Shown here: positions 21,031 to 45,263 of the stretch, one piece after another
Layout: each line of letters begins with the position of its first letter
How positions within the stretch are numbered: position 1 is the stretch's first letter
Assembly: GCA_947591455.1 (NCBI GenBank)
Contig: CANQDC010000001.1
Coordinates: 1 to 56,871 of the forward strand
DNA: 56,871 nt
From: an uncultured Bacilli bacterium
Lineage (GTDB): Bacteria; Bacillota_I; Bacilli_A; RF39; UBA660
Direction: 5' to 3'
Translations under genes and position numbers: made by a program
The notes under the pieces: model-generated
What the model was told of the DNA's origin: nothing
Database searches by the model: none
Seen by the model: the letters and a program-made list of their open reading frames with translations, nothing else

Positions 21031-21036
21031 AAAAAA

Positions 21037-23212: not shown

Positions 23213-23242
23213 TTAGCCATGAGATTTTAGGTTGGTGAAAAA

Positions 23243-26894: not shown

Positions 26895-27302
26895 GTGAAA
26901 GAATCATATTGGGGTTATTGGTTGATTACTTTGGGGGTATTTGTAATTATTATCATGATGTTAATTTCTAATATTACAACCAAAAATACACAAGATTATT
27001 ATTTGATAAAAGAAGTATCAGAAGCCGCTATGGTCGATGCCATTAATTTAGGATACTATAGAGAATATGGTGAATTAAAAATGGATCGTGAAAAATATAT
27101 TGAATCCTTTTTAAGAAGATTTGCTGAAAATGAAAGCTTAAATACCTATCAAATTGATTTTTATGGTATTTATGAAGCACCACCAAAAGCTAGTGTGAAA
27201 GTAACAAGTAAAAGTGGAAGCTTTATAATTGCTGGGGATTCAACAAATTTTGATATAGTAAACAAATTAGATGCTATATTAGAAGTTGGCACAACAGAGT
27301 AA
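26895..27302 (+). CDS. TadE/pseudopilin-like small protein
   Basis: GTG start with RBS TGGGGGA. The N-terminus MKESYWGYWLITLGVFVIIIMML has the same architecture as the MREAIGGTW proteins at 31788 and 32311. Confidence 0.45.
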   Translation: MKESYWGYWLITLGVFVIIIMMLISNITTKNTQDYYLIKEVSEAAMVDAINLGYYREYGELKMDREKYIESFLRRFAENESLNTYQIDFYGIYEAPPKASVKVTSKSGSFIIAGDSTNFDIVNKLDAILEVGTTE

Positions 27303-27316
27303 ATGGAGGATAAAAA

Positions 27317-28150
27317 ATGGGAAATATTGTAACAACAATTAAAAGATTTTTAGGAAATAAAAATACAGTAACAATTATCGGGGTAATCTTAGGAATCCTA
27401 GTATTATATATAGGATATAATTATCGTGTAAAACAAGCCACGACCCCAATTAGTGTTCCTTATGCGAAAGAAGAAATTGCATCAAGAACATTAATCACAA
27501 GTGATATGATTGGATATCGTGAAATATCAAGTACAGTAGTAAACGAAAGTACAAATTTGATTACAAATGCCAATGATTTAATTAATAATTATGTTGCTTT
27601 TGGTACAACTATACCTGCAAATAGTATGTTTTACGAATCACAAATTTTAACATCAGATGAAATGCCTGATAGTGCCTTTGCTGATATTCCAGATGGCTAT
27701 ACAATTTATAGTTTAGGTGTAGATTTACATACCACATATGGAAATTCAATCTATCCTGGAAATTATATTGATTTATATTTCAAAGGGGTAGATGATACGG
27801 ACAAAATAATGTTTGGTAAATTAATTGAAAGTATTGAAGTTTTAGCCGTAAAAGATAGTGAAGGAAATCACGTATTTGAAACGACAGTAGAATCTCGTAC
27901 TCCAGCAGAACTGTTATTTGCTGTACCAAATGATATGTATGATTTATTAATGAAAGCTGGTTATATTAGTGGTTCATCTATTGAAATTATTCCAGTTCCT
28001 CGAAACGCTTCTTATAGTGCCAATCCTGGGGATACAGTTGTTTCAAGCGATTATATTAAAAATTTCATTCTCGCAAAAAGTGCAACAATTCCACAAAATG
28101 TAACAACTACAACGAATAATAATCAAACAGATAATACAAACGAACAATAA
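27317..28150 (+). CDS. CpaB/RcpC-like Flp pilus assembly protein
   Basis: N-terminal TM and a SAF-like segment (ISVPYAKEEIASRTLITSDMIGYREIS). This is followed by YTIYSLGVD...IYPGNYIDLYF...IEVLAVKD...ELLFAVPNDMYDLLMKAGYISG...EIIPVPRN, which matches the CpaB pattern. Confidence 0.7.
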   Translation: MGNIVTTIKRFLGNKNTVTIIGVILGILVLYIGYNYRVKQATTPISVPYAKEEIASRTLITSDMIGYREISSTVVNESTNLITNANDLINNYVAFGTTIPANSMFYESQILTSDEMPDSAFADIPDGYTIYSLGVDLHTTYGNSIYPGNYIDLYFKGVDDTDKIMFGKLIESIEVLAVKDSEGNHVFETTVESRTPAELLFAVPNDMYDLLMKAGYISGSSIEIIPVPRNASYSANPGDTVVSSDYIKNFILAKSATIPQNVTTTTNNNQTDNTNEQ

Positions 28151-28179
28151 GAAAAGAATCAAAAAGGGAGGGTGTCTTA

Positions 28180-29436
28180 GTGAATAATGATGCGATATTC
28201 TCTCAACTGGACTTCGGTCCTCTTGATGAGTTTTTAAAACTAGATGATGTAACCGATATTTCATATAGTAACGGTGGGCAAGTATGGTTAAAGACACTTT
28301 CACGAGGAGTATTTCAAGTTGAAAGGCCAAACATTAATAATGCTTTAATGGAAAAATTAGCCTTTCAATGTTCGAATGTAATGGGGAAGACCTTTAATAT
28401 GGCCCATCCTTTTTTAGATGCAGAATCAACAGAACTTCGTTTAAATTTTATTCATGAATCCATTGCCACAAATGGCATAGCGTGTTTAATTCGTAAAACA
28501 CCAGCTAAGATTCGTTTGAATCGCGAAAAATTAATTAATGAACAATATGTTCGCGAAGACTTACTTGATTTTTTGCTTGCATGTGTTCAAGGACATGCCA
28601 ATATCATTGTTAGTGGAGAAACCGGATCTGGTAAAACAGAACTTGTTAAATATTTAGCAAGTACAACGAAGGAAAATGAAAAAATTATTACAATTGAAGA
28701 TACATTAGAATTACATTTAGATCGAATATTTCCTCATCGTGATATTGTAGCTATGAAAACCAATAATGTAGCTTCTTATACCGACGTGTTAGTTACCTGT
28801 ATGCGGCAAAATCCTATATGGATTTTGTTATCAGAAGTACGTAGTGCCGAAGCCGTGCTTGCTGTTCGTAACTCAATTTCATCAGGGCACCACATTATTT
28901 CTACAATTCACGCGGATAAAGCAGCCAGTATACCAATGCGTATGTACAGTTTGCTTGAATCAAATTTAGATGTTGAACAATTTTTATCAACCATTCACCG
29001 TTATGTCCAAATTGGTATTTATGTCAAAGGCTATATGAGTAAAGAATTAGGACGTTTTCAAAGAGAAATTTTAGAAATCTGCGAATTTTATGTAGATGAT
29101 GATAATAAACCAAAATCGAATACAATTTTTCAAAAAACATTAGATGGGAAATTTACCTTAAATAATCCAACCAAAAATTTAAGAGATTATTTATCAATTC
29201 AGGGTGTCGTTTTACCAGAGGATATTTTTAGATCAAATGATTCAACTAGAAATGTATCTCCTACACCAAATAATTCAAATATACCAAATAATGTAAATAC
29301 CAATGTAGCTCAGGTGGCAAACCCACAACAGCCAATGAGTCCAAATATAAATGTTAATCCTCAGATGATGCAAAGAACAACAACAGTGACTCCTAATCAA
29401 ATGGGAACTATAAATAACTTAAATCAAACGGCTTAA
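28180..29436 (+). CDS. cpaF: CpaF/TadA-type (VirB11-superfamily) secretion ATPase
   Basis: Walker A GETGSGKTE, Asp box ITIEDTLEL, Walker B RQNPIWILLSEVRSAEA, His box GHHIISTIHA. GTG start with RBS AGGGAGGGTG. It carries an extra 68-aa N/P/Q-rich C-terminal tail. Confidence 0.85.
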   Translation: MNNDAIFSQLDFGPLDEFLKLDDVTDISYSNGGQVWLKTLSRGVFQVERPNINNALMEKLAFQCSNVMGKTFNMAHPFLDAESTELRLNFIHESIATNGIACLIRKTPAKIRLNREKLINEQYVREDLLDFLLACVQGHANIIVSGETGSGKTELVKYLASTTKENEKIITIEDTLELHLDRIFPHRDIVAMKTNNVASYTDVLVTCMRQNPIWILLSEVRSAEAVLAVRNSISSGHHIISTIHADKAASIPMRMYSLLESNLDVEQFLSTIHRYVQIGIYVKGYMSKELGRFQREILEICEFYVDDDNKPKSNTIFQKTLDGKFTLNNPTKNLRDYLSIQGVVLPEDIFRSNDSTRNVSPTPNNSNIPNNVNTNVAQVANPQQPMSPNINVNPQMMQRTTTVTPNQMGTINNLNQTA

Positions 29437-29485
29437 GTTAGAAAAAAATAGATATTCAAAAGAAATAAAGAGAGTAGGTGCTTTA

Positions 29486-30379
29486 GTGGAATTAATATTA
29501 TTATTAATTATAGCAATATATGTAATATCTTACCGTCAAAACAATGGGCAAAATGTATATAAATTTTTTATCACTCAAGTAAGTGATATATATGAGAAAT
29601 TTGCCCCTTACAGTTATAAAGAAGTTAGGCAAAAAGTAAAAGCTTTAGGACAAGATTTCTCAGCTAGAGAATACACGACACAAGTAATTATATTTGGAGT
29701 TGTAGCAGGAGGAATTTCTTACTTATATTTCTATAATATTATTATAGCTTTAATTTATGCTGGGATAGCAATTGCCTTTATACCCTACTTAACTTACTTA
29801 AGATATCAAAAAATATACAGTGAATTTATATTCGAACAAGTTCAAATTTATACAACCAATGTTATTATGGAATTTACAACAACCCAAAGTTTTGTTAAAT
29901 CTCTAGAAGGAGTTAGAGATTCTGGAATTTTGGAAGATCCAGTTTTACAAGATGTCAAGACCATGATTGAAATGTCTTATCAAAATGGTACGATTGATGA
30001 ATCAATTGAATTTTTCAATCAAAAATATCCTTATTATATGGTCAAAAATATGAATCAATTGTTCTTACAAATTACTAAAGAGGGTGCCAAAGATTCAGGA
30101 GAGGCTCTAGAAAATATGTCTCAAGATATTGATGCTTTAGTAGAAGGAGTATATCGTGATCAAGTCGATCGTAAAAACTTCCATAAGCGTTTCATTACCT
30201 TTGGGCTAGCCTTATTTTTACTCGTTATGGCTATGCAGTTCTTATTAGGAACCGATAGTTATATTGAACTATTAGATATTTGGTATGTTCAAATTATTTT
30301 ACATCTGATATTAATCATTAATAGTTATTTCTTAATTACTGGAGAAAAATACTATAATGAAGATTTGGGGGTAGAATAA
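29486..30379 (+). CDS. TadB-like (GspF/T2SSF-family) pilus platform membrane protein
   Basis: 297 aa with TM segments at the N-terminus, the middle and the C-terminus around a helical cytoplasmic domain. Its position is immediately after the ATPase. Confidence 0.55.
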   Translation: MELILLLIIAIYVISYRQNNGQNVYKFFITQVSDIYEKFAPYSYKEVRQKVKALGQDFSAREYTTQVIIFGVVAGGISYLYFYNIIIALIYAGIAIAFIPYLTYLRYQKIYSEFIFEQVQIYTTNVIMEFTTTQSFVKSLEGVRDSGILEDPVLQDVKTMIEMSYQNGTIDESIEFFNQKYPYYMVKNMNQLFLQITKEGAKDSGEALENMSQDIDALVEGVYRDQVDRKNFHKRFITFGLALFLLVMAMQFLLGTDSYIELLDIWYVQIILHLILIINSYFLITGEKYYNEDLGVE

Positions 30380-31167
30380 TGTCTATAGAAATATTTTTAA
30401 TTGGAATTATCATTTTATTTGTTATGAATTACACCGGGAGAATTAATGCAAATAAATTTATTGCAGATAATGAAGTTTACTTTCGAAAATTAAAAGAAGA
30501 CGATTGGGACTTCTATGTTAGAGCAAAATATGGCGATGGTGTAAATGCGGATATTTTATTTAATAAAAGAATTCGTAATGGATTAATTGGAATTATCGTT
30601 TTAGTTTTATGTTTTATTTCTAAATTAAATTATGTAACGCTTTTATTTTCGGTTTTAGGTGGGTTTGTAATTTTTAAACTAGATTATTTAAATATCAAAA
30701 AATACTATAAACAACATTTACATGAAATAGATGCAATGTTACCACATTATTTAAAAAGTTTAGAAATTTTGATTCAACACTATACAGTACCAGTTGCTAT
30801 TGGTAAATCTATAGAAGATGCTCCAGCAATATTTAAAGAAGGATTACAAGAATTAATTAATGAAATCAATTCTGGAAATGATAAAATTGATCCCTATGTC
30901 AATTTTGCTAAAGAATATCCAGTTCGTGATTCTATGCGAATGATGCGTTTATTATATCGTTTAAGTCTTGGTCGTCAAGAACATAAACAAGAACAATTAC
31001 TTGCTTTTTCCAAAACGATTTCCAATTTACAACAAAAAGCTCGTGATATTAAATATAAAGAACGTCTAGAAAAAATGGAATCAAAAACAATGAGTATGTT
31101 AATTACAACAGGTCTAGGAGTAATGATTTTATTAATATTCTCAGTTATAATGTTAATGGGTGTCTAA
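30379..31167 (+). CDS. TadC-like (GspF/T2SSF-family) pilus platform membrane protein
   Basis: 262 aa with the same topology as the previous gene and a TAATG overlap with it. The paired TadB/TadC arrangement is typical of Tad loci. Confidence 0.5.
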   Translation: MSIEIFLIGIIILFVMNYTGRINANKFIADNEVYFRKLKEDDWDFYVRAKYGDGVNADILFNKRIRNGLIGIIVLVLCFISKLNYVTLLFSVLGGFVIFKLDYLNIKKYYKQHLHEIDAMLPHYLKSLEILIQHYTVPVAIGKSIEDAPAIFKEGLQELINEINSGNDKIDPYVNFAKEYPVRDSMRMMRLLYRLSLGRQEHKQEQLLAFSKTISNLQQKARDIKYKERLEKMESKTMSMLITTGLGVMILLIFSVIMLMGV

Positions 31168-31182
31168 TTTTTTGTGAAAATA

Positions 31183-31211
31183 TTGATATTATTAAAAAAA
31201 AAAGTTATAAT
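31183..31211 (+). promoter_or_regulatory. internal sigma-A type promoter in front of the pilin genes
   Basis: TTGATA (31183-31188), a 17-nt spacer, then TATAAT (31206-31211). Confidence 0.55.
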
Positions 31212-31242
31212 AAAAAAGTAAGATAAAGGAGGTATAATTTAT

Positions 31243-31512
31243 ATGAAAGAAGCTACCGGAGAATTAAATATGACGGTTGTTACTGTAGTAGCTATTGCAG
31301 CTGTAGCAGCATTCTTCTATGCATTTGTATGGCCAAATATTAAAACATCAATTGCAGCACAATCTGTTTGTGCAAATGGACCTAATTACACAGATAAGGA
31401 TAATGGTATTGAATGTGGTTCAACAAATAGCAATGGACAATATACATGTAATTTTAAAACTGAAAAAAATGGTAGGACAACAACTCAACAAGTTACATGT
31501 AAAACAAAATAA
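31243..31512 (+). CDS. pilin-like protein 1 (short leader, hydrophobic helix, 4-Cys head)
   Basis: RBS AAGGAGG. MKEATGELNMTVVTVVAIAAVAAFFYAFVWP is followed by a small head with 4 Cys. It sits in the Flp-pilin position of a Tad locus. Confidence 0.65.
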   Translation: MKEATGELNMTVVTVVAIAAVAAFFYAFVWPNIKTSIAAQSVCANGPNYTDKDNGIECGSTNSNGQYTCNFKTEKNGRTTTQQVTCKTK

Positions 31513-31528
31513 TAAAAGGAGTTAATTT

Positions 31529-31771
31529 ATGAAAGAAGCCACAGGAGAATTGAATATGACTGTTGTAGTAGTTATAGCGGTAGGAGTCCTAGCGGCTTTT
31601 TTCTATACTACGATATGGCCATTAATAAAAAACACATATATTGCGTCAAATAAATGTAGTGATGCCGTATGTGATCCGAGTACTTTGCATGATGGTAGGG
31701 TTTCTTGCAAGTATTATGATAAAAATGGCCGTCAACAGGGAACTAATTTTGAATGTGTATGGAAAGGTTAA
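31529..31771 (+). CDS. pilin-like protein 2 (paralog)
   Basis: RBS AAGGAG. It has the identical first 12 residues, MKEATGELNMTV, then a hydrophobic helix and a divergent 4-Cys head. Confidence 0.65.
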   Translation: MKEATGELNMTVVVVIAVGVLAAFFYTTIWPLIKNTYIASNKCSDAVCDPSTLHDGRVSCKYYDKNGRQQGTNFECVWKG

Positions 31772-31787
31772 TTAGGGAGTGATATAG

Positions 31788-32297
31788 TTGAGAGAAGCAA
31801 TAGGTGGAACATGGTTATTTCAAATTGTTATTGTTTTTGTTTTGTTATTTACAGGTTTCATGTGTTTGACAATTAACCATACCAAAGCATTTAATGTTAA
31901 AAATAATATTATTAATACGATTGAAAGAGAAGAAGGAATAGATTTACAAAATCCAAAAAATGATCCAGCGATAAAAAAAATTGTTGAGTATTTAAAAGAA
32001 ACGGCTTACCGTACTACAGGAGATTGTCCTACTGGATATGTAGGTATTAATAGAGATGGAGACATCGATAGTAAAAATGCTGCTTTTTGTTTAGAGCAAA
32101 AAACGTTTGATTCGCGTCCGAGCGATCAATATCCAGAGATGAACTATTACCGTGTAGTTGTATTTTATCAACTGGATTTACCTATATTTAATGAAGTTTT
32201 TAACTTTAGAGTTACAGGGGATACAAAAATATTGAATAAAAATAATATGAGATCAGAGCCTAAGTATAAAGGCGATATTATGATTATGAGTGCTTAA
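31788..32297 (+). CDS. TadE-like minor pilin/pseudopilin 1
   Basis: TTG start with RBS AGGGAG. MREAIGGTWLFQIVIVFVLLF is followed by a globular domain of about 140 aa. Confidence 0.5.
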   Translation: MREAIGGTWLFQIVIVFVLLFTGFMCLTINHTKAFNVKNNIINTIEREEGIDLQNPKNDPAIKKIVEYLKETAYRTTGDCPTGYVGINRDGDIDSKNAAFCLEQKTFDSRPSDQYPEMNYYRVVVFYQLDLPIFNEVFNFRVTGDTKILNKNNMRSEPKYKGDIMIMSA

Positions 32298-32310
32298 AGT
32301 AGGTGAGTAA

Positions 32311-32787
32311 ATGAGAGAAGCAATTGGTGGAACATGGATTTTACAATTAGTTATTGTATTTATGCTTTTATTTGTCGCTTTTTTAGCATTATCACTAAAT
32401 TATAGTAAGGCGTTTCAAATTAAAAATGAAATGCTTACGATGATTGAAAAAAAAGAAGGCGTGACTTCAGATACACTTACACTAATGAATAATTATTTAA
32501 AAAATAGTGGGTATCGTGTTCAAAAAAATTGTCCGATGGGAAGTTATGGAGTATCAGATTTGAATCGAAATACAATTTCTCTAGCTACGAATGGTGGTCA
32601 ATATTATTATTGTATTACAAAAGTGGCTGCTCCATCTACTTTACATCGTAAAAAAGTCTATTATAAAATTGAAAACTTTTTTTATTTCAATTTACCTATT
32701 ATTGGAGATATAGTAAAGTTTACCATTAATGGAACAACAAATGATATAGCTATACCAGCAGATAATTTAAAAGCAATTTCAGAATAA
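32311..32787 (+). CDS. TadE-like minor pilin/pseudopilin 2
   Basis: MREAIGGTWILQLVIVFMLLF. It is a paralog of the preceding gene. Confidence 0.5.
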   Translation: MREAIGGTWILQLVIVFMLLFVAFLALSLNYSKAFQIKNEMLTMIEKKEGVTSDTLTLMNNYLKNSGYRVQKNCPMGSYGVSDLNRNTISLATNGGQYYYCITKVAAPSTLHRKKVYYKIENFFYFNLPIIGDIVKFTINGTTNDIAIPADNLKAISE

Positions 32788-32802
32788 GGAAGTGAATAGG
32801 AA

Positions 32803-33807
32803 ATGAATGTTATTGTATCAAATAAATATCAATCTTTACTTGCCACATTAGATATTGATATTATCAAAAGTATTAATGGTGAATTTGAGGTTGAAGATTT
32901 AGTAAGTCAATTTACTAATTTTTATTTTAATAAAATGATATTAGATATAACAGCAATAAAAAATTATCAAGATATATCTACCATTCAAACATTGTCTGTA
33001 AACATGGATGTAAGTAATATCATTCTTTTATTAGATGATTCTGAAGTTGTCAATTCACCACGATATTTATCTTCTTTAGTATCTATGGGGATTTATAATT
33101 TTACCCGAAATATTGATGCTATTAAATTTTTGATCGATAATCCTAATTCTTATAAAGATGTGGCGCAATATCATCAATTAAATGCTGTAAGTGATGGGTC
33201 ATCGGCTTCAACGAATTCAACAGTAAATATTAGTAAATTAGGGCTTCGAGTAATTGGGATAAAAAATGTAACCGAACATGCTGGATCTACAACATTAACC
33301 TATTTATTAAAAAAACATTTAGAAAAACAATATACTTGTATAGCAGTAGAAGTAGATGAACATGACTTTATATATTTAAATGATAAAGAACTAAAAACCA
33401 CTTCATCACTCGATTTACCAGCTTTTATAGCTACTCATAGTGACGTTGAAGTAATATTAGTCGATTTAAACGATCGGGGCAGTATAAATAGTTGTACAGA
33501 AGTGATTTATTTAATAGAACCTGGGTTAATTAAATTAAATAAATTAATCCGCAAAGATAAACGTACTTTTGAAAAATTAAAAGATAAAAAAATTGTTTTA
33601 AATCGAAGTGTGTTAAATGAAAAAGATGTAAAAGATTTTGAATATGAATCGAGAAGCAAAGTATTTTTTAATATTCCTTACTTAGACGATAAATTAGATC
33701 ATCATAAAATATTGAATCAATTTTTAATTAAATTAGGGTTTGTTCGTTTTGAAGAATCAAATAACGATTCAAAAAATAGTAAACTATTTAACATTTTTAA
33801 GACATAA
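32803..33807 (+). CDS. TadZ/CpaE-like protein (receiver-like N-domain + ParA/MinD-like domain with a degenerate P-loop)
   Basis: The C-terminal half follows the MinD/ParA pattern: RVIGIKNVTEHAGSTTLTYLL...IAVEVD...VILVDLND...VIYLIEP...IVLNRS...NIPYLDD. The KGGxGK(S/T) Walker A is replaced by NVTEHAGSTT. Confidence 0.5.
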   Translation: MNVIVSNKYQSLLATLDIDIIKSINGEFEVEDLVSQFTNFYFNKMILDITAIKNYQDISTIQTLSVNMDVSNIILLLDDSEVVNSPRYLSSLVSMGIYNFTRNIDAIKFLIDNPNSYKDVAQYHQLNAVSDGSSASTNSTVNISKLGLRVIGIKNVTEHAGSTTLTYLLKKHLEKQYTCIAVEVDEHDFIYLNDKELKTTSSLDLPAFIATHSDVEVILVDLNDRGSINSCTEVIYLIEPGLIKLNKLIRKDKRTFEKLKDKKIVLNRSVLNEKDVKDFEYESRSKVFFNIPYLDDKLDHHKILNQFLIKLGFVRFEESNNDSKNSKLFNIFKT

Positions 33808-33810: not shown

Positions 33811-33839
33811 TTGACAGAATTTGGAATAATTTATAAAAT
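33811..33839 (+). promoter_or_regulatory. sigma-A type promoter of the short VirB2-like gene
   Basis: Consensus TTGACA (33811-33816), a 17-nt spacer, then TAAAAT (33834-33839). Confidence 0.6.
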
Positions 33840-33871: not shown

Positions 33872-34240
33872 ATGGATTTATTTTTAACAGGAGCTGTTGA
33901 TTTTTGTAAAAATACAGCAAATATTTGGCAAATTGTTGGATATGTTCTATTAGTTTTTAAAGTTGTAATCCCTATTTTATTAATTGTATTCGGAATGCTT
34001 GATTTAGGTAAAGCAGTTATTGCTAGTAAATCAGACGAAGTAAAAAAAGCTGCTACGTCTTTAGCGTTTAGAGCAGTAGGGGGCGTTGCTATCTTCTTGA
34101 TACCAACAATTATTTCTTTAATTATGGGATTTATATCTGATTTCCAAACTTCAGGGGCCAAAGATGATTTTGAAGTTTGTAGAAAATGTATTACAAGACC
34201 AAATACTGAATGTAAGAATGCAGCAGAGGCTTGGAAGTAA
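33872..34240 (+). CDS. VirB2/TrbC-like two-helix protein (candidate T4SS pilin), short form
   Basis: 122 aa with two hydrophobic helices separated by a charged loop (DLGKAVIASKSDEVKKAATSLAFR), and a Cys-containing tail CRKCITRPNTEC. It is monocistronic, with its own promoter and terminator. Confidence 0.5.
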   Translation: MDLFLTGAVDFCKNTANIWQIVGYVLLVFKVVIPILLIVFGMLDLGKAVIASKSDEVKKAATSLAFRAVGGVAIFLIPTIISLIMGFISDFQTSGAKDDFEVCRKCITRPNTECKNAAEAWK

Positions 34241-34243
34241 TTA

Positions 34244-34268
34244 AAAGCATAAATTGCTTTTTTTTTTG
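34244..34268 (+). terminator. rho-independent terminator
   Basis: AAAGCA (34244-34249) / TGCTTT (34255-34260) followed by a T-run. Confidence 0.6.
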
Positions 34269-34301
34269 CTCTATGATATAGTTTATAATAGGTGAAGGCA
34301 T

Positions 34302-35423
34302 ATGGAATTTATAGATAAATTAAATGAATTGACAAACTTTTTTAAAGAGAAAAAACCAAGACTCCTTTTTATAGGGGAATTCTTATTATTCCTTTTTGTA
34401 ATTAGTCTTGTTATTATTATCGTTATAAATTTTATAAATTCGAAAATGTCTTATGATAAGCTAGAAGAAAAATTAGTGAATGCTACCCAAGAATATAGCA
34501 AAGATTATCCGAACAACCTTCCGACTCAAGAAAATCCAACTACAGTGATTGATGCTAAAACTTTAATTGAACAAAAATATATAAAAAAATTAGAGAAATA
34601 TGTGAAAGATTCATCATGTACAGCAAATGTAAATATTTACTACAACAATAGTGAATATAAATATCAAGCCTTTTTAAAATGCAATACATATCAAACAACT
34701 CAATTAGCAGATACTTTAAAAAAGAATAACCAACTTTCTTCTTTTAACGAAGGATTATATGAAATGAACAATGAATTTGTTTATCGGGGCCAAGATCCAA
34801 AAAATTATCTTTCTTTTGCAAATGAATTATGGCGAATTGTGAAAATAAATACGAATGGTCAAATTATCCTTATTCAAAATGATTTAGTTAGTGAATATTA
34901 TGGCAATTGGGATGATCGATACAATACAGAAGCTGGTTTACAAAAGGGAATTAATACCTATTCTTTAAGTCGTGCTTTATCTACTATGGAAAATATTTAT
35001 AAAGAAAAATACAGTAAATATGAGGAACTTTTAACACCATTTAATGTATGTGCCGAAAAAAGAAATACGATGGATTTTATAAATGATGGTTCTATCGAAT
35101 GTGCCAATATGTTAAATAATCAAAAAATGAGTTTATTGCCTCTTTATGATTACATAAATGCTAGTTTAGATAATTTGTGTATAAGTGCCAGTAATAAAGA
35201 ATGCGAAAATTATAATTACTTAGCAACCGCAAAAGATAAATGGTGGACAGCCACTGGAAATAAAGCCAATACGTATGAAGTATATTATATAGATAGTTAT
35301 GGACAAATTATCTCAGATGAAGCCGATGCCAGTGCCACCTATCGTTATGTTCTTGCCTTAGATAGTCATGTTTTGTATGAAAGTGGCGATGGATCGCAAA
35401 GTAATCCATACAAAGTTCGTTAA
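34302..35423 (+). CDS. membrane-anchored extracellular protein (possible minor pilin or adhesin-like)
   Basis: 373 aa with an N-terminal TM (LLFIGEFLLFLFVISLVIIIVINFI). It has several Cys, the motif YRGQDPKNYLSFANELWRIVKIN, and a C-terminal KWWTATG...GDGSQSNPYKV. Confidence 0.55.
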   Translation: MEFIDKLNELTNFFKEKKPRLLFIGEFLLFLFVISLVIIIVINFINSKMSYDKLEEKLVNATQEYSKDYPNNLPTQENPTTVIDAKTLIEQKYIKKLEKYVKDSSCTANVNIYYNNSEYKYQAFLKCNTYQTTQLADTLKKNNQLSSFNEGLYEMNNEFVYRGQDPKNYLSFANELWRIVKINTNGQIILIQNDLVSEYYGNWDDRYNTEAGLQKGINTYSLSRALSTMENIYKEKYSKYEELLTPFNVCAEKRNTMDFINDGSIECANMLNNQKMSLLPLYDYINASLDNLCISASNKECENYNYLATAKDKWWTATGNKANTYEVYYIDSYGQIISDEADASATYRYVLALDSHVLYESGDGSQSNPYKVR

Positions 35424-35484
35424 AATTTCTTTTTATTTTAAATAGAAATTGATATAATAACAAAGAGATTAATGGAGAGAGATT

Positions 35485-36600
35485 ATGAAAAAATTTTTGT
35501 GTTTTGTTTTGACGGTAGCTTGGTTGGGAGTAAATACAACTGTATATGCTAAAACAACTCCAAATGGAGTAAATATAGAAGATTATGATGCCAATGCTAG
35601 TTATACAAGTCTATATTGCTATTATAGTAATAATGTATATGTATCCATTCAAGAAACAGATCATTTAGAAGTATTACCAGAAGCTAGTGACACTCGTTAT
35701 TTAAAACTTCCTTTTGTCAATTATGATTATGCTGAAATGCGAGCATGGAATTTTTTAAATGAAAATGATGAATGGGATTGTCCTTTATATGCGCAAACAG
35801 ACAGTTCAAGATCCAAAATTATTAGTTTTTCCAATCAAGTAGCACCAAATTCTTATCCGTTGAATAAAAATAAAAGTAATTGTTTAGGAAAAGCTGCGAT
35901 TTATCAAGAATCCTCAAACACGTATACTTGTTCTTATAGTGGAAATAGTGGTTCTTTAAAAGTCGAAGGATCTGGAAATAAATGTACCGTAACCTATCCT
36001 GATGGGTCCACCCAAAATATAACGAATGGTGTTTGTAGCATGACTTCGAAAGATAGTTGTCCTGATTTGTACTATAATAAATCTACAAAAGAATTAAAAT
36101 GGGCAACCTATGACTATGCAAAGTATTTTGAAGAAAATAATAAAAATAATTATGATATGACTATGTATGATATGATTTGTAAAGATAATCAAAATATCGA
36201 TTATTTATGTAATGGGACCTGTGAGTTTCCTGCCAATCAAAATATTAATTGTAGTAAAATAGAACAAACAATTTACCAAGGAGAATTATGTTATCAACCA
36301 GGAGTAGCTAAATCATTTCGCTTTTTTGGCTATCTATTATTTATAGCAAAAGTAATTATCCCTATAATACTAATTGCCACAGGTTCAATGGATTTTGCTA
36401 AAGCACTTACATCATCCAATCAAGATGCGCTAACAAAATCAACTCGTCGTTTTGCTTTACGGATTGTTACGGGAGTAGTCGTTTTTTTACTACCAACGAT
36501 CATTTATTTTTTCTTCAATCTGATTCCTACCGATGATTCTGCTCATAAAAATTGCAGTACCTGTTTATTCCGCCCAAATCAATGTAATATTTCATCTTAA
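35485..36600 (+). CDS. secreted Cys-rich protein with a C-terminal VirB2-like two-helix module
   Basis: Signal peptide MKKFLCFVLTVAWLGVNTTVYA and a Cys-rich ectodomain of about 270 aa. The C-terminal module is homologous to the 33872 protein and ends with CSTCLFRPNQC. Confidence 0.6.
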   Translation: MKKFLCFVLTVAWLGVNTTVYAKTTPNGVNIEDYDANASYTSLYCYYSNNVYVSIQETDHLEVLPEASDTRYLKLPFVNYDYAEMRAWNFLNENDEWDCPLYAQTDSSRSKIISFSNQVAPNSYPLNKNKSNCLGKAAIYQESSNTYTCSYSGNSGSLKVEGSGNKCTVTYPDGSTQNITNGVCSMTSKDSCPDLYYNKSTKELKWATYDYAKYFEENNKNNYDMTMYDMICKDNQNIDYLCNGTCEFPANQNINCSKIEQTIYQGELCYQPGVAKSFRFFGYLLFIAKVIIPIILIATGSMDFAKALTSSNQDALTKSTRRFALRIVTGVVVFLLPTIIYFFFNLIPTDDSAHKNCSTCLFRPNQCNISS

Positions 36601-36630
36601 AAACTGATTAGATTTTAATCAGTTTTTCTG
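36601..36630 (+). terminator. rho-independent terminator
   Basis: 10-bp stem AAACTGATTA (36601-36610) / TAATCAGTTT (36616-36625), T-rich downstream. Confidence 0.6.
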
Positions 36631-36703
36631 TTCTTAGCACTAGTAATATGGAAAAAAAATTGTTATAATGAAAAAGAGTACGTGAAAAAAGTAGGGATAT
36701 TTC

Positions 36704-37795
36704 ATGAAGAAAAAAATAATATTTTTAATATATATATTTATGCTTTTTAGTTGCTATGGAGTTTCTGCCAAAACATTAGAAAATACATGTGTTTATGAAG
36801 CATCATATGAAAAAAAAGAGGAGAATAAAAAAATTACAATCACATGTAAATTTTACGATAATAATACTTATGACAAATGTGATATAGGAACCACTTTTAA
36901 GCAATCCATTTCCAATTGGAGTTCAATGCCTAAAGCAGAAGACAATATGAAAAGTTGGTATGAGAAAAATCATAAATGTTTTCCATATTTCGTTTTTATG
37001 GATAAAGGAACTTTATTTGATAAATATGAAATCTATGCGGCGGATACTTTAACACGTGCAAATTCTTTGAAAACAGAACAAGGAGATACATGGGATTATC
37101 ACACAGCAATAGCTACGGAACATAGTCTTTATGAAAAAGAAGATAAAACAAAAGAGCCAACAGACAAAATAAATTCTTATATTGAAACTTTGAATGATAT
37201 AGAAAATAATTTTGGTTTAAAAGATTGTGTAACGAACGGTAAAATAGAAGTAAATATTAAAAAAAATAATTATAAAGTTTGCCAAAAAAAAGTTGAAGCG
37301 ATGTATGAACAAATAAAAGAATATGATCAATATACAGAAGAGCAAATCAAAAATGGAACTTTTAAGGAAGAGGATCCGATTATAACCCAATATCGTGAGG
37401 CCGTTTCCAAAGCTCGCGGAAGTGTGAACGAAACGTTAGATGAAAATATGTCTCAAACTCAAACGGATGAGAAAATTAATGTAACCGCTTCTGAAAATAA
37501 TAATTTGACAACCAGTGATATTAATTGTAATAATATTTTTTCCGGTAATTTTGGTAAATATTTAAAATTGATTTTATCTTTTATTCGCTTCCTTGTACCA
37601 ATTATTATTCTTGGTCTAGCTATTTTAGATTTTATAAAAGCAACCTCTGCTCAAGATGAAACAGAAATGAAAAAAGCTTCAACCAAATTGGTTCAAAGAA
37701 TGATTATTGGAGTGATTATATTTTTACTTCCCACTCTGTTAGAAGTAATATTAAATTTGGCAGATATCCCATATGGAACTTGTGGTATTAAATAG
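36704..37795 (+). CDS. secreted protein with a C-terminal VirB2-like two-helix module
   Basis: Signal peptide MKKKIIFLIYIFMLFSCYGVSA and an ectodomain of about 270 aa. The C-terminal module LVPIIILGLAILDFIKATSAQDETEMKKASTKLVQRMIIGVIIFLLPTLL is homologous to those at 33872 and 35485. Confidence 0.6.
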   Translation: MKKKIIFLIYIFMLFSCYGVSAKTLENTCVYEASYEKKEENKKITITCKFYDNNTYDKCDIGTTFKQSISNWSSMPKAEDNMKSWYEKNHKCFPYFVFMDKGTLFDKYEIYAADTLTRANSLKTEQGDTWDYHTAIATEHSLYEKEDKTKEPTDKINSYIETLNDIENNFGLKDCVTNGKIEVNIKKNNYKVCQKKVEAMYEQIKEYDQYTEEQIKNGTFKEEDPIITQYREAVSKARGSVNETLDENMSQTQTDEKINVTASENNNLTTSDINCNNIFSGNFGKYLKLILSFIRFLVPIIILGLAILDFIKATSAQDETEMKKASTKLVQRMIIGVIIFLLPTLLEVILNLADIPYGTCGIK

Positions 37796-37810
37796 ATTGG
37801 AGGAAGAAAT

Positions 37811-39874
37811 ATGCTGATCGCATGGAACATTGTGAATTCCTTAAAATCAGGAATAATGGGCTTTTTCTTAATGGTAGATGGTATTGTTTACTGGCTGATT
37901 GGTTTATTATATGATTTATATTACAATCTTGCTGGAGCCCAGATTATATCAAATAGTACCTATGAAGAAATTGCCAATCGCTTTTTAGTAATTATTGGTG
38001 TTTGTATGTTGTTCTTTTTAACTTATTCTTTACTACGAGCCTTAGTAAATCCAGATGAGTTAAATAAATCAATTAGCAAAATTGTGAAAAATATTGTCAT
38101 TTCTTTAGTGTTATTATCCTTAGTACCAACCATATTCAGTTATGCTTTTAAAATTCAAAATGCGATTATTACGGATCATGTAATTGATAATTTAGTCTTT
38201 GGAAATACCAATAATACTTTATCTTCCGTCGGAAAAACAACCGCTATGACTTTCTTTGATGCTTTTGTTACCGTAAGTGATGATGCAGAAATAGATGGAT
38301 ATGAAAATTGGGAAAGTTTAAAAATTTGTATTCAAGATAATACCGTGGAAGGATGTGCTGGGAATGAAGGATTTCGGCATATTGGTTTACTTGCTTCTTC
38401 CGTTGCTAGTGGGGATACCGATTATACCTTCCTAATTAGTACGGCTTGTGGTTGCTTTTTAGTATATGTTTTACTTTCTTTTTGCTTGGATTTAGGGGTT
38501 CGGATTGTAAAATTAGCGTTTTATCAAATTATTTCTCCGATACCCATTTTAATGCAAGTAATTCCCGAAAAAAAATCTGTTTTTGATAATTGGGTGAAAG
38601 CAACTATTGAAACATATTTAGAAGTTTTTATTCGATTATTTATTATGTACTTAGTAGCTTTCTTATGTTCAAAGATTTTTCATGATAACGTTATTTCTTC
38701 CAGTTTAGGAGTTTTTGGGACCATAATAACGATTATGGGAATCTATGCATTTGCAAAACAAGCACCAAAATTGATTGGAGATATTCTTGGACTTAAAGGA
38801 AATATTAAACTTGGTATTCGTGAAAAATTAGCAAATGGAGGAGGATTGATGGCTGCTGCCGCTCTTGGTGGTGGAGCAACATCTTTTGTTCGAAATGCTG
38901 TACATGGTGCCAACAATGTTATGCAAGAAAGAGGTTTTTCAAATCGAGCTAGAGCTTTCGGTCGTGGACTCTTAAGTTCCGGAGCTGGTTTGGTAAGTGG
39001 AGCTGCTCGAGGGGGATATAATGCCAGAAATGCTCATAATTATGCCGATGTTCGAAATGCATCTAATAATGCTGTTCAAAGTACTGTAAATGCTCGAAAT
39101 AATAGAGAAGCTTATCGAACCAATCATCCAGGTCGATTAGGACCTATAAGAGGGCATATATCAGATGTTGGTCAAAACTTCAGCAATTATATTGGATTAG
39201 AAACTCCATTAGAACAATTACGAGTCGAACAAACCCAAGCTCAAGAAGTTCAAAATGCTCGTAAAGCAATTGATGATCGTTTAAAATCAATTATGGAACG
39301 AGATGCAGCGAGAAGAATGGCGACCCAAGCCGTTGATATTAAAGATGAACAAGGAAATGTGATTGCTAGCTACAAAAATTTAGCAGAATTAGAAAATGCT
39401 AAAGAAATATTAAAATCGGGTGGAAATATTAATGGAGTAACAGCCACAGCCTCTCTTTTAAGAGAATTTGATAAACAAGAAGGCAATTTGAAAAAGCAAT
39501 TAAAAAAGGATATTTTAAATGGTTACGATGTAAATGGAAATCAATTAACATCAGAACAATTTGCAACCAAATATGATGGAAATTTACAAGAATTATTAAC
39601 CACTTATCGTACAAAATCATTACAACGGGCGAACGTAATTGCTTCCAATGCCTCTGATGATGAAGCTGTTCAAAATTCTTTAAGCCAATTCCGCGAACAA
39701 GCGATTAACCATCAAGATGTATCTTTAAATGATTTTGTTAGAAACGGTTTTGCCGATGAATTAGTCAATAATTCTAAAAATGTTATTGATAATGCAAATA
39801 TGAATATTAACATCAATATGAATCAAAGAGTACAAGAACAAAGAAATAATAGTAATAATAGAAATAATTCATAG
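37811..39874 (+). CDS. VirB6/TrbL-like polytopic T4SS channel protein
   Basis: 687 aa. The N-terminal 340 or so aa hold multiple TM helices. They are followed by a G/A-rich segment (GGGLMAAAALGGGATSF) and a long N/Q/R-rich soluble tail, as in TrbL/TcpH/ConG-type proteins. Confidence 0.55.
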   Translation: MLIAWNIVNSLKSGIMGFFLMVDGIVYWLIGLLYDLYYNLAGAQIISNSTYEEIANRFLVIIGVCMLFFLTYSLLRALVNPDELNKSISKIVKNIVISLVLLSLVPTIFSYAFKIQNAIITDHVIDNLVFGNTNNTLSSVGKTTAMTFFDAFVTVSDDAEIDGYENWESLKICIQDNTVEGCAGNEGFRHIGLLASSVASGDTDYTFLISTACGCFLVYVLLSFCLDLGVRIVKLAFYQIISPIPILMQVIPEKKSVFDNWVKATIETYLEVFIRLFIMYLVAFLCSKIFHDNVISSSLGVFGTIITIMGIYAFAKQAPKLIGDILGLKGNIKLGIREKLANGGGLMAAAALGGGATSFVRNAVHGANNVMQERGFSNRARAFGRGLLSSGAGLVSGAARGGYNARNAHNYADVRNASNNAVQSTVNARNNREAYRTNHPGRLGPIRGHISDVGQNFSNYIGLETPLEQLRVEQTQAQEVQNARKAIDDRLKSIMERDAARRMATQAVDIKDEQGNVIASYKNLAELENAKEILKSGGNINGVTATASLLREFDKQEGNLKKQLKKDILNGYDVNGNQLTSEQFATKYDGNLQELLTTYRTKSLQRANVIASNASDDEAVQNSLSQFREQAINHQDVSLNDFVRNGFADELVNNSKNVIDNANMNININMNQRVQEQRNNSNNRNNS

Positions 39875-39882
39875 AGGATGAA

Positions 39883-40440: not shown

Positions 40441-40456
40441 AAAGGAGGAAGAAAAA

Positions 40457-40768
40457 ATGAATCATAATTATTTAATACCAGCGAATTCTAAAAAATCAAT
40501 GCTAATTCTAGGCTTTTTTACTCCCATCGATTTAGTTATTTTTGGAGTAGGATGTCTATTTACGTTAGTTATGCTTTTTGTATTTAACTCTAGTGTTGAT
40601 TTAAGCATGATGATATTGATACTAGCTCCCGCTTTAATCTCCGCATTTTTAGTTATGCCAGTACCGAATTATCATAATGTGTTACAATTAATTACAAATA
40701 TAGTAACATTCCTAATGGGACGAAAAAGGTATTATTGGAGAGGCTGGTGTATTAAAGATGAAAAATAA
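40457..40768 (+). CDS. PrgI/VirB3-like small T4SS membrane protein
   Basis: 103 aa with RBS AGGAGGA. It has two TM helices (LILGFFTPIDLVIFGVGCLFTLVMLFVF and LILAPALISAFLVMPV) and lies immediately upstream of VirB4, as in pCF10 prgI-prgJ. Confidence 0.55.
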   Translation: MNHNYLIPANSKKSMLILGFFTPIDLVIFGVGCLFTLVMLFVFNSSVDLSMMILILAPALISAFLVMPVPNYHNVLQLITNIVTFLMGRKRYYWRGWCIKDEK

Positions 40769-43102: not shown

Positions 43103-43127
43103 TTAAAGTGTAAGTAGGTGGATTTTT

Positions 43128-45263
43128 ATGCTAAATGATGAAGAAGAATTTCTAGAAGATGAAGAATCAAAACAAACAAAATTAGAAGAAGAACCAGAAA
43201 AACAGCCAGTTGAAAAAAAACTGGCTTCTAAAGATTCTGCTATTCAAAAAGAAACATCAAAATTAGCAAAAGATTTATTGAAAAAAAATCCCTATACGAA
43301 AGCCATTATACTTGGTATTATTGTTCTTATCTTTTTTATTTTAATTATCTTAATGATTGTTTTTGATTTTGATTTAGTTGGCACCGGGGATGTTGAATCT
43401 ATAGATTATCCCAATTCTTTTTGTAGCAGTATTAATATATCTTCAACCAATACGACACTTGATTTAGAAGATTATGTAGCGAGAAAAGTCTATGATGATA
43501 ACGAAAATGCTAATGATGTGGATAATGAAGTGGTGTATCAAGCAATGGCGATTGCGATAAGAAGTCAAGTGACTGCAACTTTAAGTGAAGATTGTACAAT
43601 TAATGAAGAAGTCACGAAATTAAGTGGTATAGAACCGAATTATGAAAAAATTATGGAAGCAGTAAAAGCAACCTCAGGCTTAATTATCGCTAAAGATAAT
43701 CAGGCGATAAATGCTTTATATGATCCATTTTCTTATGTATCAAAAGATAAAGGATTTTATTATATGATGAATAAAAATGAAGCAGGAGAGCAATGGATTC
43801 CTGCAAATTGGGTAGAAGAACAGAATATTCCTACTAAAAAAGTTCTTAGCCACAAAACTTTATCTTCTTTAAGTTTATATGGGGCAAAATATTTATTAGA
43901 AAAAGCGGATTCTCAATACGATTTATATCGAATTTTAGAAGAATATTATGGACGGGATATTGAATATTTTTCCATAAGTAGTAAAAATTTTCTTTGTTCG
44001 GATATTGATTTTTATAAAACCCCTTTGACAAAAGAAGAATTTGTCTCTAGATTAAAAAATTATCTTCAAGGAAAAAATTCTACCACAGCTCGTCTTTTTA
44101 TCGAACATGCTGAAGATATTTATGATTGGGGTCTAGAAGTCGGAGCAAACCCCGAAATGGTTGTAATAACCGCTCAAAAAGAACAACAGTGGAATGATAC
44201 TTCTTTCACGGTAAGATGTAATAACTTTTATGGAATGGGTGTATATAACGGTCAATCGAGTGGAATGTGTTTTGATTCCTTTAAAGATGGTGTTGTTTAT
44301 ATGTTAAATTATATTAAACAAAAAGGAAGTTTAGATGCCTATACAAAAGTATATTCTTATCTAGGAACCTATTTAGCCAATCCCGGAAGTTGGGGAGATG
44401 GGGGCTGCATTTATTTAACGATGCCTGATATATTTGGACCCAATTATTCAAGATGTAATGCTGGCTATTCTTGTCCAAGTTCCAATGGCGGCGCTGGTTG
44501 TGTTTTAACTACAGAAGCAGAAAAACAAGCATATATAGATTGGCAAGGAAAAATTATCTTAGAATATCGTTCGAATATATTTCAAATTAATTCAAGTGAT
44601 TGTGAAAATGGCATTGAAGGAAGTACCGATGGGGCAACGCTATTGAATGAATCAATCGAATCATTTTTAGCGAAAAATGGAAGCTCTTTAGCAGAATTCA
44701 ATGATGTAGTTTTACAACAAGGATGTAAATACAAAGGAACGGGACAAGGAGTTGCCTATGTAGCAGCAACGGCCGTATCTGAGTTGGCAAAATATGGTAA
44801 AAAATTTAATTATGTTTGGGGTGGAATGCATACAAGTGCCCCTGAAAGCTTTGGAGTCCCAGCCAATTGGGGAATTTATGGACCGGACTGTAGTGGATTT
44901 GTTTCTTGGGCTTTATATAATGCTGGATTTGAATGGAAAAGTTTAGGAGCTACAGCTTGGGGAGGTCTTGGTGAGGTTGTTTCTTTAGATGATAATCGCA
45001 TTAAAGTTGGAGATTTTATTGTTACTCCAGGAAATCGAGGATGGAACCATATTGTCATAATAACCGCTATTCATGCCGATGAAGGATATTACAATGTGGT
45101 AGAAGCATCTAGTACCCGGAATGGTGTTATATTTAGTAAAGTGAATATAAACAAAAGCAATAATCGTAAAGCAGTTTTAATGAGTAATTACTATGAAAGT
45201 GCACCAAAATCAATTGCTTACAACGTAATGTGCACAGCAAGGAGCGTAAAAAATGGCGAATAG
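43128..45263 (+). CDS. membrane-anchored multi-domain cell-wall hydrolase (CwlT/TcpG-like)
   Basis: An acidic N-terminus and one TM, then a SpoIID-like segment (VVYQAMAIAIRSQV). This is followed by a glucosaminidase/muramidase-like segment (GANPEMVVITAQKEQQWND...NNFYGMG) and a C-terminal NlpC/P60 domain (GPDCSGFVSWALYNAGF...NHIVIITA). Confidence 0.75.
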   Translation: MLNDEEEFLEDEESKQTKLEEEPEKQPVEKKLASKDSAIQKETSKLAKDLLKKNPYTKAIILGIIVLIFFILIILMIVFDFDLVGTGDVESIDYPNSFCSSINISSTNTTLDLEDYVARKVYDDNENANDVDNEVVYQAMAIAIRSQVTATLSEDCTINEEVTKLSGIEPNYEKIMEAVKATSGLIIAKDNQAINALYDPFSYVSKDKGFYYMMNKNEAGEQWIPANWVEEQNIPTKKVLSHKTLSSLSLYGAKYLLEKADSQYDLYRILEEYYGRDIEYFSISSKNFLCSDIDFYKTPLTKEEFVSRLKNYLQGKNSTTARLFIEHAEDIYDWGLEVGANPEMVVITAQKEQQWNDTSFTVRCNNFYGMGVYNGQSSGMCFDSFKDGVVYMLNYIKQKGSLDAYTKVYSYLGTYLANPGSWGDGGCIYLTMPDIFGPNYSRCNAGYSCPSSNGGAGCVLTTEAEKQAYIDWQGKIILEYRSNIFQINSSDCENGIEGSTDGATLLNESIESFLAKNGSSLAEFNDVVLQQGCKYKGTGQGVAYVAATAVSELAKYGKKFNYVWGGMHTSAPESFGVPANWGIYGPDCSGFVSWALYNAGFEWKSLGATAWGGLGEVVSLDDNRIKVGDFIVTPGNRGWNHIVIITAIHADEGYYNVVEASSTRNGVIFSKVNINKSNNRKAVLMSNYYESAPKSIAYNVMCTARSVKNGE

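Follow-up and report, generated by a model that had tools for sequence, protein, structure and literature searches.

A tandem array of candidate pilin-like proteins at a type IV secretion locus of an uncultured gut Bacilli bacterium

The DNA analysed here (the window) is a 56,871-nucleotide chromosomal stretch of about 29% G+C from an uncultured Bacilli bacterium of the RF39 lineage (contig CANQDC010000001.1). Within 4 kb it carries three genes that encode one short and two long proteins with a common two-helix module, referred to below as the short form, long form 1 and long form 2 (the proteins starting at 33872, 35485 and 36704; Table 1). The reading favoured here, with somewhat better than even confidence, is that the three genes represent the pilin-like subunit set of a monoderm type IV secretion system (T4SS) of the MPF-FATA type, similar to the systems of Mollicutes integrative and conjugative elements (ICEs), in which a conserved core is accompanied by variants with fast-evolving ectodomains. 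It builds on the observed paralogy of the genes, a modelled helical hairpin, a cysteine pattern, synteny, expression signals and a gradient of divergence along the locus.

The short protein and the C-terminal 100 or so residues of the 371- and 363-residue proteins are paralogous. In BLASTP comparisons the short form aligns with long form 1 at 36% identity over 105 residues (E=3e-20), with the tail motif CxxCxxRPN inside the alignment, and with long form 2 at 33% identity over 78 residues (E=4e-13); the two long forms share 28% identity over 68 residues (E=3e-13). The common module had been proposed in an earlier note made from the letters of the window, and these comparisons bear it out; the three open reading frames are also as the note gave them. 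The peptide strings quoted there and the tails CRKCITRPNTEC and CSTCLFRPNQC are exact, and the third protein ends in ...PYGTCGIK. The cysteine that the note placed 10–15 residues before helix 1 in fact lies 6–9 residues before the segments it quoted (C12, C269 and C275).

An AlphaFold2 (AF2) model of the short protein shows a helical hairpin formed by residues 16–51 and 54–87, with block means of the predicted local distance difference test (pLDDT) of 84–94 over residues 21–80 and lower confidence in the tail that follows. The equivalent hairpin in the model of long form 2 spans residues 282–315 and 319–352. The loop region of the short form, D44–R67, holds K47, K53, K58, K59 and R67. The module thus has the two long hydrophobic helices, folded as a hairpin around a short basic loop, that characterise VirB2, TrbC and TraA pilins.

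A second hallmark of the module is its cysteines, a near-invariant one ahead of helix 1 and one or three in the tail. When 290 modules were aligned to the family profile with hmmalign, the pre-helix cysteine was present in 99% of them and the three tail cysteines in 96%, 94% and 91%; four cysteines in total were counted in 246 modules and two in 14. Near-invariant positions also include a lysine and a proline in the middle of helix 1 (FKIVIP), the D..KA that closes helix 1, a lysine and an arginine in the loop, and F..PT in helix 2. Since the short form contains no other cysteine, its pre-helix cysteine can pair only with the tail or with another chain.

The array lies at the head of a T4SS gene block, an arrangement that recurs in related loci. 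A search of GTDB species genomes gave 197 relatives, of which the best 80 loci were kept. They derive from metagenome-assembled genomes (MAGs) of uncultured gut Bacilli ('Tenericutes'), sampled from rabbit, chicken (Ca. Ventrenecus), mouse, human and ruminants among other sources; a few are labelled otherwise, for example as Muribaculaceae, and may be mislabelled. Each locus carries one to eight module genes in tandem on one strand, and the order is conserved from the Tad cluster through the short form, a homologue of the 34302 protein where present (17 of 42 large loci) and the long forms to the genes for the VirB6-like, PrgI-like and 187-residue proteins, VirB4 and an NlpC/CHAP hydrolase. 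In all 19 loci in which a VirB6-like gene was detected, it starts between -15 and +23 nucleotides from the end of the last module gene, and PrgI-like and VirB4 genes follow the array in 31–32 of the 42 large loci. The module is not peculiar to this locus.

The protein encoded directly behind the array matches the VirB6-like NCBIfam models MMCAP2_0566 (E=1.1e-15) and Mbov_0396 (E=8.6e-9), below their curated cut-offs but specifically. VirB4 itself appears to be split into two genes, because the 187-residue protein encoded at 40758 matches the N-terminal part of the Mbov_0397-type VirB4; related loci, as well as plasmids of Exiguobacterium and Bacillus, have the same two-gene arrangement. Neither a relaxase nor an integrase was found in the window by Pfam searches and comparison with MobP3 plasmids. 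The first transmembrane (TM) hairpin of the VirB6-like protein, at residues ~54–116 (...RALVNPDELNKSISKIVKN...LVPTIF), is itself weakly module-like (Pfam T4SS_pilin E=0.027). The module aligns with residues 75–116 of this protein in hhalign (E=0.0014, 18% probability), and its consensus weakly matches VirB6-like NCBIfam profiles (Mbov_0396, MMCAP2_0566 and pLS20_p028) at ~56–129.

Upstream, homologues of the Tad genes of the window precede the array in 20 of the 24 related loci with enough flanking sequence; of the 24, 19 have T4SS genes and 17 have both systems. One alternative is that the array serves the neighbouring Tad/Flp pilus, and not the T4SS, as a source of accessory or minor subunits; its position directly behind the Tad cluster and very weak TadE/Tad Pfam matches on helix 1 (E 0.16–0.6) would agree with this. 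This alternative is considered very improbable: the module proteins carry no prepilin-type leader, two loci have the array and the T4SS but lack Tad genes, and the array keeps its tight spacing to the VirB6-like gene, yet a promoter of its own separates the short gene from the Tad genes.

That promoter and the terminator-like hairpin behind the short gene are both conserved. TTGAC(A/T) and TAnAAT elements are placed equally in at least 14 of 16 related loci despite diverged spacers, and a hairpin with a run of 7–10 T residues follows the short gene in nearly all 16, with stems that differ but covary (GCAAT/ATTGC, CTAGT/ACTAG and GAAAGT/ACTTTC). The hairpin of the window, at 34244–34267, is too weak to be called by a terminator scan that requires at least three G-C pairs. 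The claim that the short form has its own promoter and terminator is thus upheld, and this conservation suggests that the short gene is a separately, probably strongly, transcribed unit, as is usual for genes of major structural subunits. Another promoter-like site, with 11 of 12 consensus positions and an extended -10 TG, lies at 37505–37534 inside the gene of long form 2, just upstream of its module part; it is probably a chance occurrence in AT-rich DNA, because no in-frame start follows.

The long forms differ from the short form in what precedes the module. Both begin with a Sec-type signal peptide of 22 residues, as read from the sequence (...VYA|K and ...VSA|K), whereas in the short form a signal peptide was not found and no longer open reading frame is possible at 33872. 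The N-domain that follows the signal peptide is common to both long-form types and has the pattern C-x-Y ... C-P-x-Y, with which the ectodomain of long form 1 opens; across aligned long forms C29 and Y31 are invariant and C92 nearly so (window positions 35551–35800 and 36770–37050), and the middle regions are exchanged between loci. The earlier description of large Cys-rich ectodomains suits long form 1, with 11 cysteines in about 245 residues, but fits long form 2 less well, with six. The AF2 model of long form 2 has a mean pLDDT of 76, falling below 50 in the linker at 252–274. Foldseek found no significant match for this model in the PDB, which suggests that the ectodomain fold is without a solved relative.

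Conservation is graded along the locus. Over ten syntenic loci, identity is 84–94% for VirB4, 84–93% for CpaF and 78–94% for the TadB/C-like proteins, compared with 58–80% for the short form, 45–62% for the 34302 protein, 40–50% for the VirB6-like protein and 31–61% for the long forms, whose alignments often cover the module only. As read from these alignments, the locus exchanges its exposed parts and keeps the module and the motors. Homologue searches agree with this gradient: they recovered 260 close homologues of the short form (57–80% identity), none of which has a signal peptide, 8 of long form 1 and 14 of long form 2, several of which align over the module alone.

A profile search of 1.84 billion cluster representatives (50% clustering) matched 10,485 representatives at E<=1e-3 and 6,995 at E<=1e-10. 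The top representatives included 147 that the preceding homologue searches had not recovered; 102 of them exceed 160 residues in length, and most have an N-terminal signal peptide, a Cys-containing ectodomain and the module at the C-terminus. Exceptions are one protein with two modules in tandem (P0163) and one with the module at the N-terminus. Fusions to secreted domains, which had been expected to be unusual anywhere, are therefore not rare. Enzyme-like domains seem to be among the fusion partners: as read from the sequences, a GDS(L)-type motif occurs in P0156 and P0161, and a GxSxG esterase-like C-terminal domain follows the N-terminal module of P0168.

Such architectures bring up a different role for the module, namely that of a non-polymerising membrane anchor or docking element that tethers variable adhesin or enzyme ectodomains beside the T4SS. 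The module would perhaps pack against the VirB6-like protein in the translocon, the short form would be a channel or accessory subunit, and the ectodomains would stand in for LPXTG-anchored adhesins such as PrgB. Very diverse and partly enzyme-like ectodomains (P0156, P0168), N-terminal modules and double modules are easier to square with an anchor than with a helical fibre; the weak mutual resemblance between the consensus of the module and the N-terminal TM hairpin of VirB6-like proteins and the lack of detectable similarity to pilins of known structure also favour it. Nevertheless, the best conserved member of the family is the ectodomain-free short form with its own promoter and terminator, which argues for a module that functions in its own right and is produced in surplus, as major subunits are. 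PF18895 and CagC matches exist, and the array occupies the slot held by TrbC-positive pilins on Firmicute plasmids. The anchor is accordingly regarded as possible, although less probable than a pilin-like subunit set.

Profile comparisons give the pilin-like reading qualified support. The strongest signal is to PF18895 (T4SS_pilin; gathering threshold 26.6 bits): four close homologues score 29.4, 28.3, 26.5 and 29.4 bits over profile positions 4–71 of 71, so that three of the four lie above the threshold, and their reversed sequences give no match. The consensus of the 290 modules reaches 26.9 bits, and 50 of 81 family members match at E<=0.01. Like the members that PF18895 describes, the array is encoded inside a T4SS gene cluster. 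Judged by these scores, membership of the module in PF18895 is borderline. A weak match to CagC, a VirB2-family protein (PF16943), was obtained for a window protein (E=0.053) and for 4 of the 81 members (best E=0.0021). Long form 2 matches NF045849, the 'Mbov_0395 family pilin-like' model, at 17.6 bits (E=0.0022, profile positions 5–78 of 80), below the cut-off of 40 bits; the consensus of modules of its type scores 17.8 bits and the broad consensus 15.1 bits. The module thus resembles the pilin-like proteins of mycoplasma ICEs, but weakly, and profile comparisons detected no similarity to VirB2, TrbC-type pilins or TraA. PF04956 (cut-off 27.9 bits) and PF05513 are not matched by the module.

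Other results weigh against a pilin. None of the three window proteins reaches any curated threshold; the short form scores 14.1 bits against PF18895 (E=0.051), and neither long form matches it at E<=1. Clearly spurious, TM-driven matches to Frizzled reach 22.5 bits and are also lost on reversal, which leaves PF18895 a modest margin of about 7 bits. In hhalign, the module aligned with Agrobacterium tumefaciens VirB2 (sequence confirmed against 8CUE/8EXH) at a probability of 0.1%, with F TraA at 0.2% and with a four-sequence alignment of Firmicute TrbC-like pilins at 0.5% (E=0.11); hhalign against the Exiguobacterium pilin alone and hidden Markov model (HMM) searches against Firmicute-plasmid pilins at E<=10 were negative. 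Foldseek retrieved generic TM hairpins from the PDB for the short-form model (best E=3), with no pilin among 35 matches; the matches of highest probability were the TM hairpin of HtrII, and Foldseek has little power on bare helical hairpins. When the family profile was run against PDB sequences, the 60 matches listed, of 68 in all, were exclusively to G-protein-coupled receptors (GPCRs; rhodopsin and opioid-receptor TM5–TM6), which are compositional matches. The cleaved N-terminal leader typical of VirB2, TrbC and TraA is absent from the short form, only ~11–17 residues preceding its hairpin, and the Sec signal peptides of the long forms lead into large ectodomains. Finally, the extracytoplasmic cysteines of long form 1 number 15, which is odd.

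A further alternative places the module in an unrelated two-TM family. Its resemblance to pilins would then be compositional, and its role, for example in regulation, immunity or the handling of lipids, would be tied to the T4SS only loosely. The marginal pilin-family scores of the window proteins, spurious GPCR matches of a similar order and the failure of every direct comparison with bona fide pilins would fit such a family. It is held to be unlikely, given that the array abuts the VirB6-like gene in every locus where one was detected and that three independent pilin-type models, PF18895, PF16943 and NF045849, are the non-GPCR models that recur, each aligned in register along its whole length. 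Searches of Pfam, NCBIfam and PHROGs brought up no family of holins, immunity proteins or phage proteins, so that the assignment to a holin-like or immunity protein that the earlier note had named as refuting did not arise. A holin or phage origin was rejected after a PHROGs scan confined to the short form, the 34302 protein and the VirB6-like protein gave no match. Identity with VirB3/PrgI/TcpE was likewise rejected; hhalign against the PrgI-like protein of the window gave a probability of 0.3%, and a separate PrgI/TcpE-like gene is present. In tblastn searches the module consensus had no match in plasmid and phage collections, and the N-terminal half of the VirB6-like protein had none in plasmids.

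On balance, the view that the module works like a T4SS pilin, and sits where one would, is partly supported, whereas membership in the classical VirB2/TrbC family is unsupported by profile comparisons. Of the original VirB2/TrbC proposal, the hairpin layout, the T4SS locus and the homologues above the PF18895 threshold stand, but similarity to VirB2, TraA or TrbC themselves does not.

If the three genes encode a pilin-like subunit set, a simple model can be drawn up for its assembly. In the membrane the module would form a helical hairpin with both termini outside (N-out/C-out) and the Lys/Arg-rich loop on the cytoplasmic side; the positive-inside rule, the long-form signal peptides and the placement of every cysteine point to this topology. 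ATP-synthase subunit c inserts into the membrane leaderless, and leaderless insertion of the short form would be plausible given so short an N-terminal tail. Outside the cell, the cysteine before helix 1 may be disulfide-bonded to the Cys-bearing tail and staple the ends of the hairpin, functionally comparable to the head-to-tail cyclisation of T- and P-type pilins; a membrane-anchored CSHC thioredoxin-like protein encoded beside the cluster may aid this step. The short protein would be the abundant core subunit, a role suggested by its good conservation for a surface protein, its own promoter and the terminator after it. The long proteins would enter the same assembly through their modules, at the VirB6-like/VirB4 platform encoded just downstream, and serve as minor, specificity-determining subunits that display fast-evolving secreted domains on a flexible linker, probably to make contact with target cells or surfaces. 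Polymerisation of these major and minor subunits would yield an extracellular fibre.

A bolder extension, put forward as speculation and thought rather improbable in its entirety, is that cell-walled, Mollicutes-related gut Bacilli build a T4SS-dependent fibre from a disulfide-stapled, leaderless pilin core with interchangeable adhesin or enzyme ectodomains. A chromosomal T4SS, with no relaxase found in the window, would then serve, together with the Tad pilus, a Patescibacteria-like contact lifestyle and not plasmid transfer.

The closest parallel among known systems is found in the Patescibacteria, where arrays of VirB2-like proteins (PF18895/PF04956) belong to a monoderm, MPF-FATA-related T4SS (PMC12102498, PMC12857230), as in the window. 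These are tandem arrays of 2–11 divergent small two-helix proteins near virB4, and the three window genes are likewise tandem paralogues of 28–36% mutual identity close to virB4. A PF18895-type signal and an accompanying type IV-filament system are common to both, and as in the Patescibacteria system no relaxase was found in the window. In contrast to it, the hosts here are gut Bacilli ('Tenericutes') MAGs and the partner filament is of the Tad/Flp type; the family has a conserved four-Cys pattern and many fusions to secreted ectodomains of 100–450 residues, its core subunit lacks a signal peptide, and the window proteins fall below the PF18895 threshold.

Mycoplasma ICEs have the same gene order, in which a small two-TM protein (Mbov_0395/MMCAP2_0565) precedes a polytopic, VirB6-like membrane protein (Mbov_0396) and VirB4 (Mbov_0397). 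The array lies upstream of Mbov_0396-like and Mbov_0397-like genes, the position that NF045849 describes, yet all matches of the window are far below the NCBIfam cut-offs (17.6 versus 40 bits for the pilin-like model). Unlike these elements, the window combines an array whose members include ectodomain fusions with genes for a cell-wall hydrolase and a Tad pilus. The small two-TM proteins CDS13 and CDS15 of Mycoplasma ICEs are described in a recent T4SS review as VirB3-like, not pilin-like (PMC12857230).

On Firmicute plasmids, pilin genes occupy the corresponding slot. The order in Exiguobacterium pEYLC1.2 is MobP3 relaxase, VirD4, 'pilin', TrbL, PrgI, an unassigned gene and VirB4, with Tad genes further on; the Bacillus thuringiensis pBMB67 group has the identical pilin slot (VirD4, pilin, TrbL/VirB6, PrgI, an unassigned gene and VirB4). 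The pilin genes between VirD4 and TrbL/VirB6 lie at 9678–10070 in pEYLC1.2, 5869–6249 in pBMB67, 2860–3240 and 632–931 in two further plasmid loci (L087 and L086). VirB4, VirD4, RcpC and CpaF of the Exiguobacterium plasmid are homologous to window proteins. Its RefSeq 'pilin' passes the cut-offs of both PF18895 (E=5.9e-12) and the TrbC/VirB2 family PF04956 (31.5 bits against a cut-off of 27.9), which links the two Pfam families. Relatives, detected by tblastn, hold the same slot on 35 Bacillus plasmids, pBMB67 among them, and a Staphylococcus aureus plasmid also carries one. These plasmid pilins differ from the window module in having long cleavable leaders, no Cys pattern and no ectodomain fusions; they are single-copy, accompany a MobP3 relaxase and show no detectable direct similarity to the module.

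Like the A. tumefaciens VirB2 T-pilin and F TraA, the module is a helical hairpin of some 70 residues whose helices are joined by a basic loop, its gene stands at the head of the VirB3/VirB4/VirB6 block, and its ends may be tied, by cyclisation there and a putative disulfide here. It differs in having no sequence or profile similarity, in not retrieving these pilins in Foldseek, in a leaderless short form, in an extra disulfide-type tail of about 30 residues and in its monoderm host.

Reviews up to 2025 describe Gram-positive T4SSs as being without VirB2-type pilins, with Patescibacteria as the sole exception (PMC4027160, PMC12857230), and VirB2 homologues in monoderm T4SSs have been reported for Patescibacteria only (PMC4027160, PMC12102498, PMC12857230). 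The premise that VirB2-type pilins are unexpected in Firmicutes agrees with these reviews but does not accommodate the Exiguobacterium pilin and its Bacillus relatives. The plasmid pilin genes contradict the review statement on Gram-positive T4SSs. PF18895, NF045849 and PGAP 'pilin' calls are already present in databases. Four-Cys arrays with ectodomain fusions were not described for gut Bacilli in the literature searched, which also had nothing relevant on RF39, T4SS and pili.

Table 1. Features of the array and its neighbourhood in the window (module positions are residues of the respective protein)
Feature	Position	Strand	Description
Tad/Flp-type pilus cluster	26895..33807	+	DUF5411, RcpC/CpaB, CpaF ATPase, TadB-/TadC-like
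Tad cluster, further genes	within 26895..33807	+	two Flp-like pilins, two TadE-like, ParA/TadZ-like protein
Sigma-70-type promoter	33811..33839	+	TTGACA-17 nt-TAAAAT; 11/12 consensus positions
Short form, open reading frame	33872..34240	+	122 residues, nearly all module
Short form, parts			C12; helix 1 ~16-51 (K30, P34); Lys-rich loop; helix 2 ~54-87 (F75, P78)
Short form, tail			C103-x2-C106-x7-C114
Weak terminator-like hairpin	34244..34267	+	AAAGCA taaat TGCTTT and T-run, directly 3' of short gene
373-residue protein between short and long forms	34302..35423	+	N-terminal TM anchor, 6-Cys ectodomain, no module
Long form 1, whole open reading frame	35485-36600	+	371 residues
Long form 1, N-terminal part	35485..36279	+	22-residue signal peptide and ectodomain of ~245 residues with 11 Cys
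Long form 1, module	36280..36600	+	C269, two helices, tail CSTCLFRPNQC; module HMM covers residues 264-369
Long form 2, whole open reading frame	36704-37795	+	363 residues
Long form 2, N-terminal part	36704..37516	+	22-residue signal peptide; alpha/beta N-domain ~25-139; helical ~150-251; disordered linker 252-274
Long form 2, module	37517..37795	+	C275, two helices, tail ...YGTCGIK with single Cys
VirB6-like polytopic membrane protein	37811..39874	+	begins 16 nt past array
PrgI/TcpE-like (VirB3-like) gene	40457-40768	+	
187-residue protein	40758-41321	+	VirB4_plasma (Mbov_0397-type Mollicutes VirB4) model positions 92-276, E=2.7e-14, below curated cut-off
VirB4 ATPase	41318-43102	+	594 residues; start overlapped 4 nt by 187-residue gene
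NlpC/P60-CHAP cell-wall hydrolase, LppM-like protein, VirD4 coupling protein	43128..48117	+	

The Tad/Flp cluster and the T4SS genes (26895–33807 and 33872–48117) form one co-oriented supercluster, which is kept in the 17 well-flanked loci noted above. The pairing recurs on the Exiguobacterium plasmid (Tad at 19903–25599) and parallels the pairing of a type IV pilus with a T4SS reported to be essential in Patescibacteria. The two Flp-like pilins (31243–31512 and 31529–31771) have an unusual leader, MKEATGELNMTVV..., and four cysteines each in the C-terminal part; a promoter-like site with 11 of 12 consensus positions precedes them at 31183–31211, and identity of the first to its counterparts is 35–44% across most related loci. 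Divergent from the first gene of the cluster and beside it, on the minus strand, are genes for a membrane-anchored thioredoxin-like protein (22680–23129; N-terminal TM segment, CSHC) and a CAAX/Rce1-like protease (21958–22680), two proteins that might form disulfides in the Cys-bearing pilins or process them.

Further out, one flank of the window carries T-box leaders and aminoacyl-tRNA synthetase genes, and the other RmuC, UppP and a further class I (Trp/Tyr-type) tRNA synthetase gene. The T-box leaders, at 3897–4079 and 13632–13815 upstream of the LeuRS and TyrRS genes (Rfam RF00230, 101–104 bits), are consistent with a Bacillota chromosome. The leucyl-tRNA synthetase (4477–7284) has a NUDIX domain (Pfam E=8.6e-14, residues 373–497) inserted directly behind the editing domain. 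A few kilobases upstream of the cluster lie two adjacent PD-(D/E)XK_2 (Rpn/YhgA-like 'transposase') paralogues (18577–19596 and 19754–20653), and a CotZ-like open reading frame is found at 18161–18628.

More generally, this locus and some 10,000 related cluster representatives (50% clustering), of which many carry variable surface domains, suggest that animal-gut Bacilli have a large class of monoderm T4SSs to which pilin-like subunits regularly belong, and the TrbC-positive plasmid 'pilin' genes of Exiguobacterium and Bacillus point the same way. If the module polymerises, it would offer a tractable route to understanding how a T4SS crosses the Gram-positive wall, how target specificity is encoded and whether gut Bacilli with reduced genomes use a T4SS and a Tad pilus for a Patescibacteria-like dependence on cell–cell contact. 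If it does not polymerise, it would still represent a new and widespread way to anchor surface proteins at a secretion machine.

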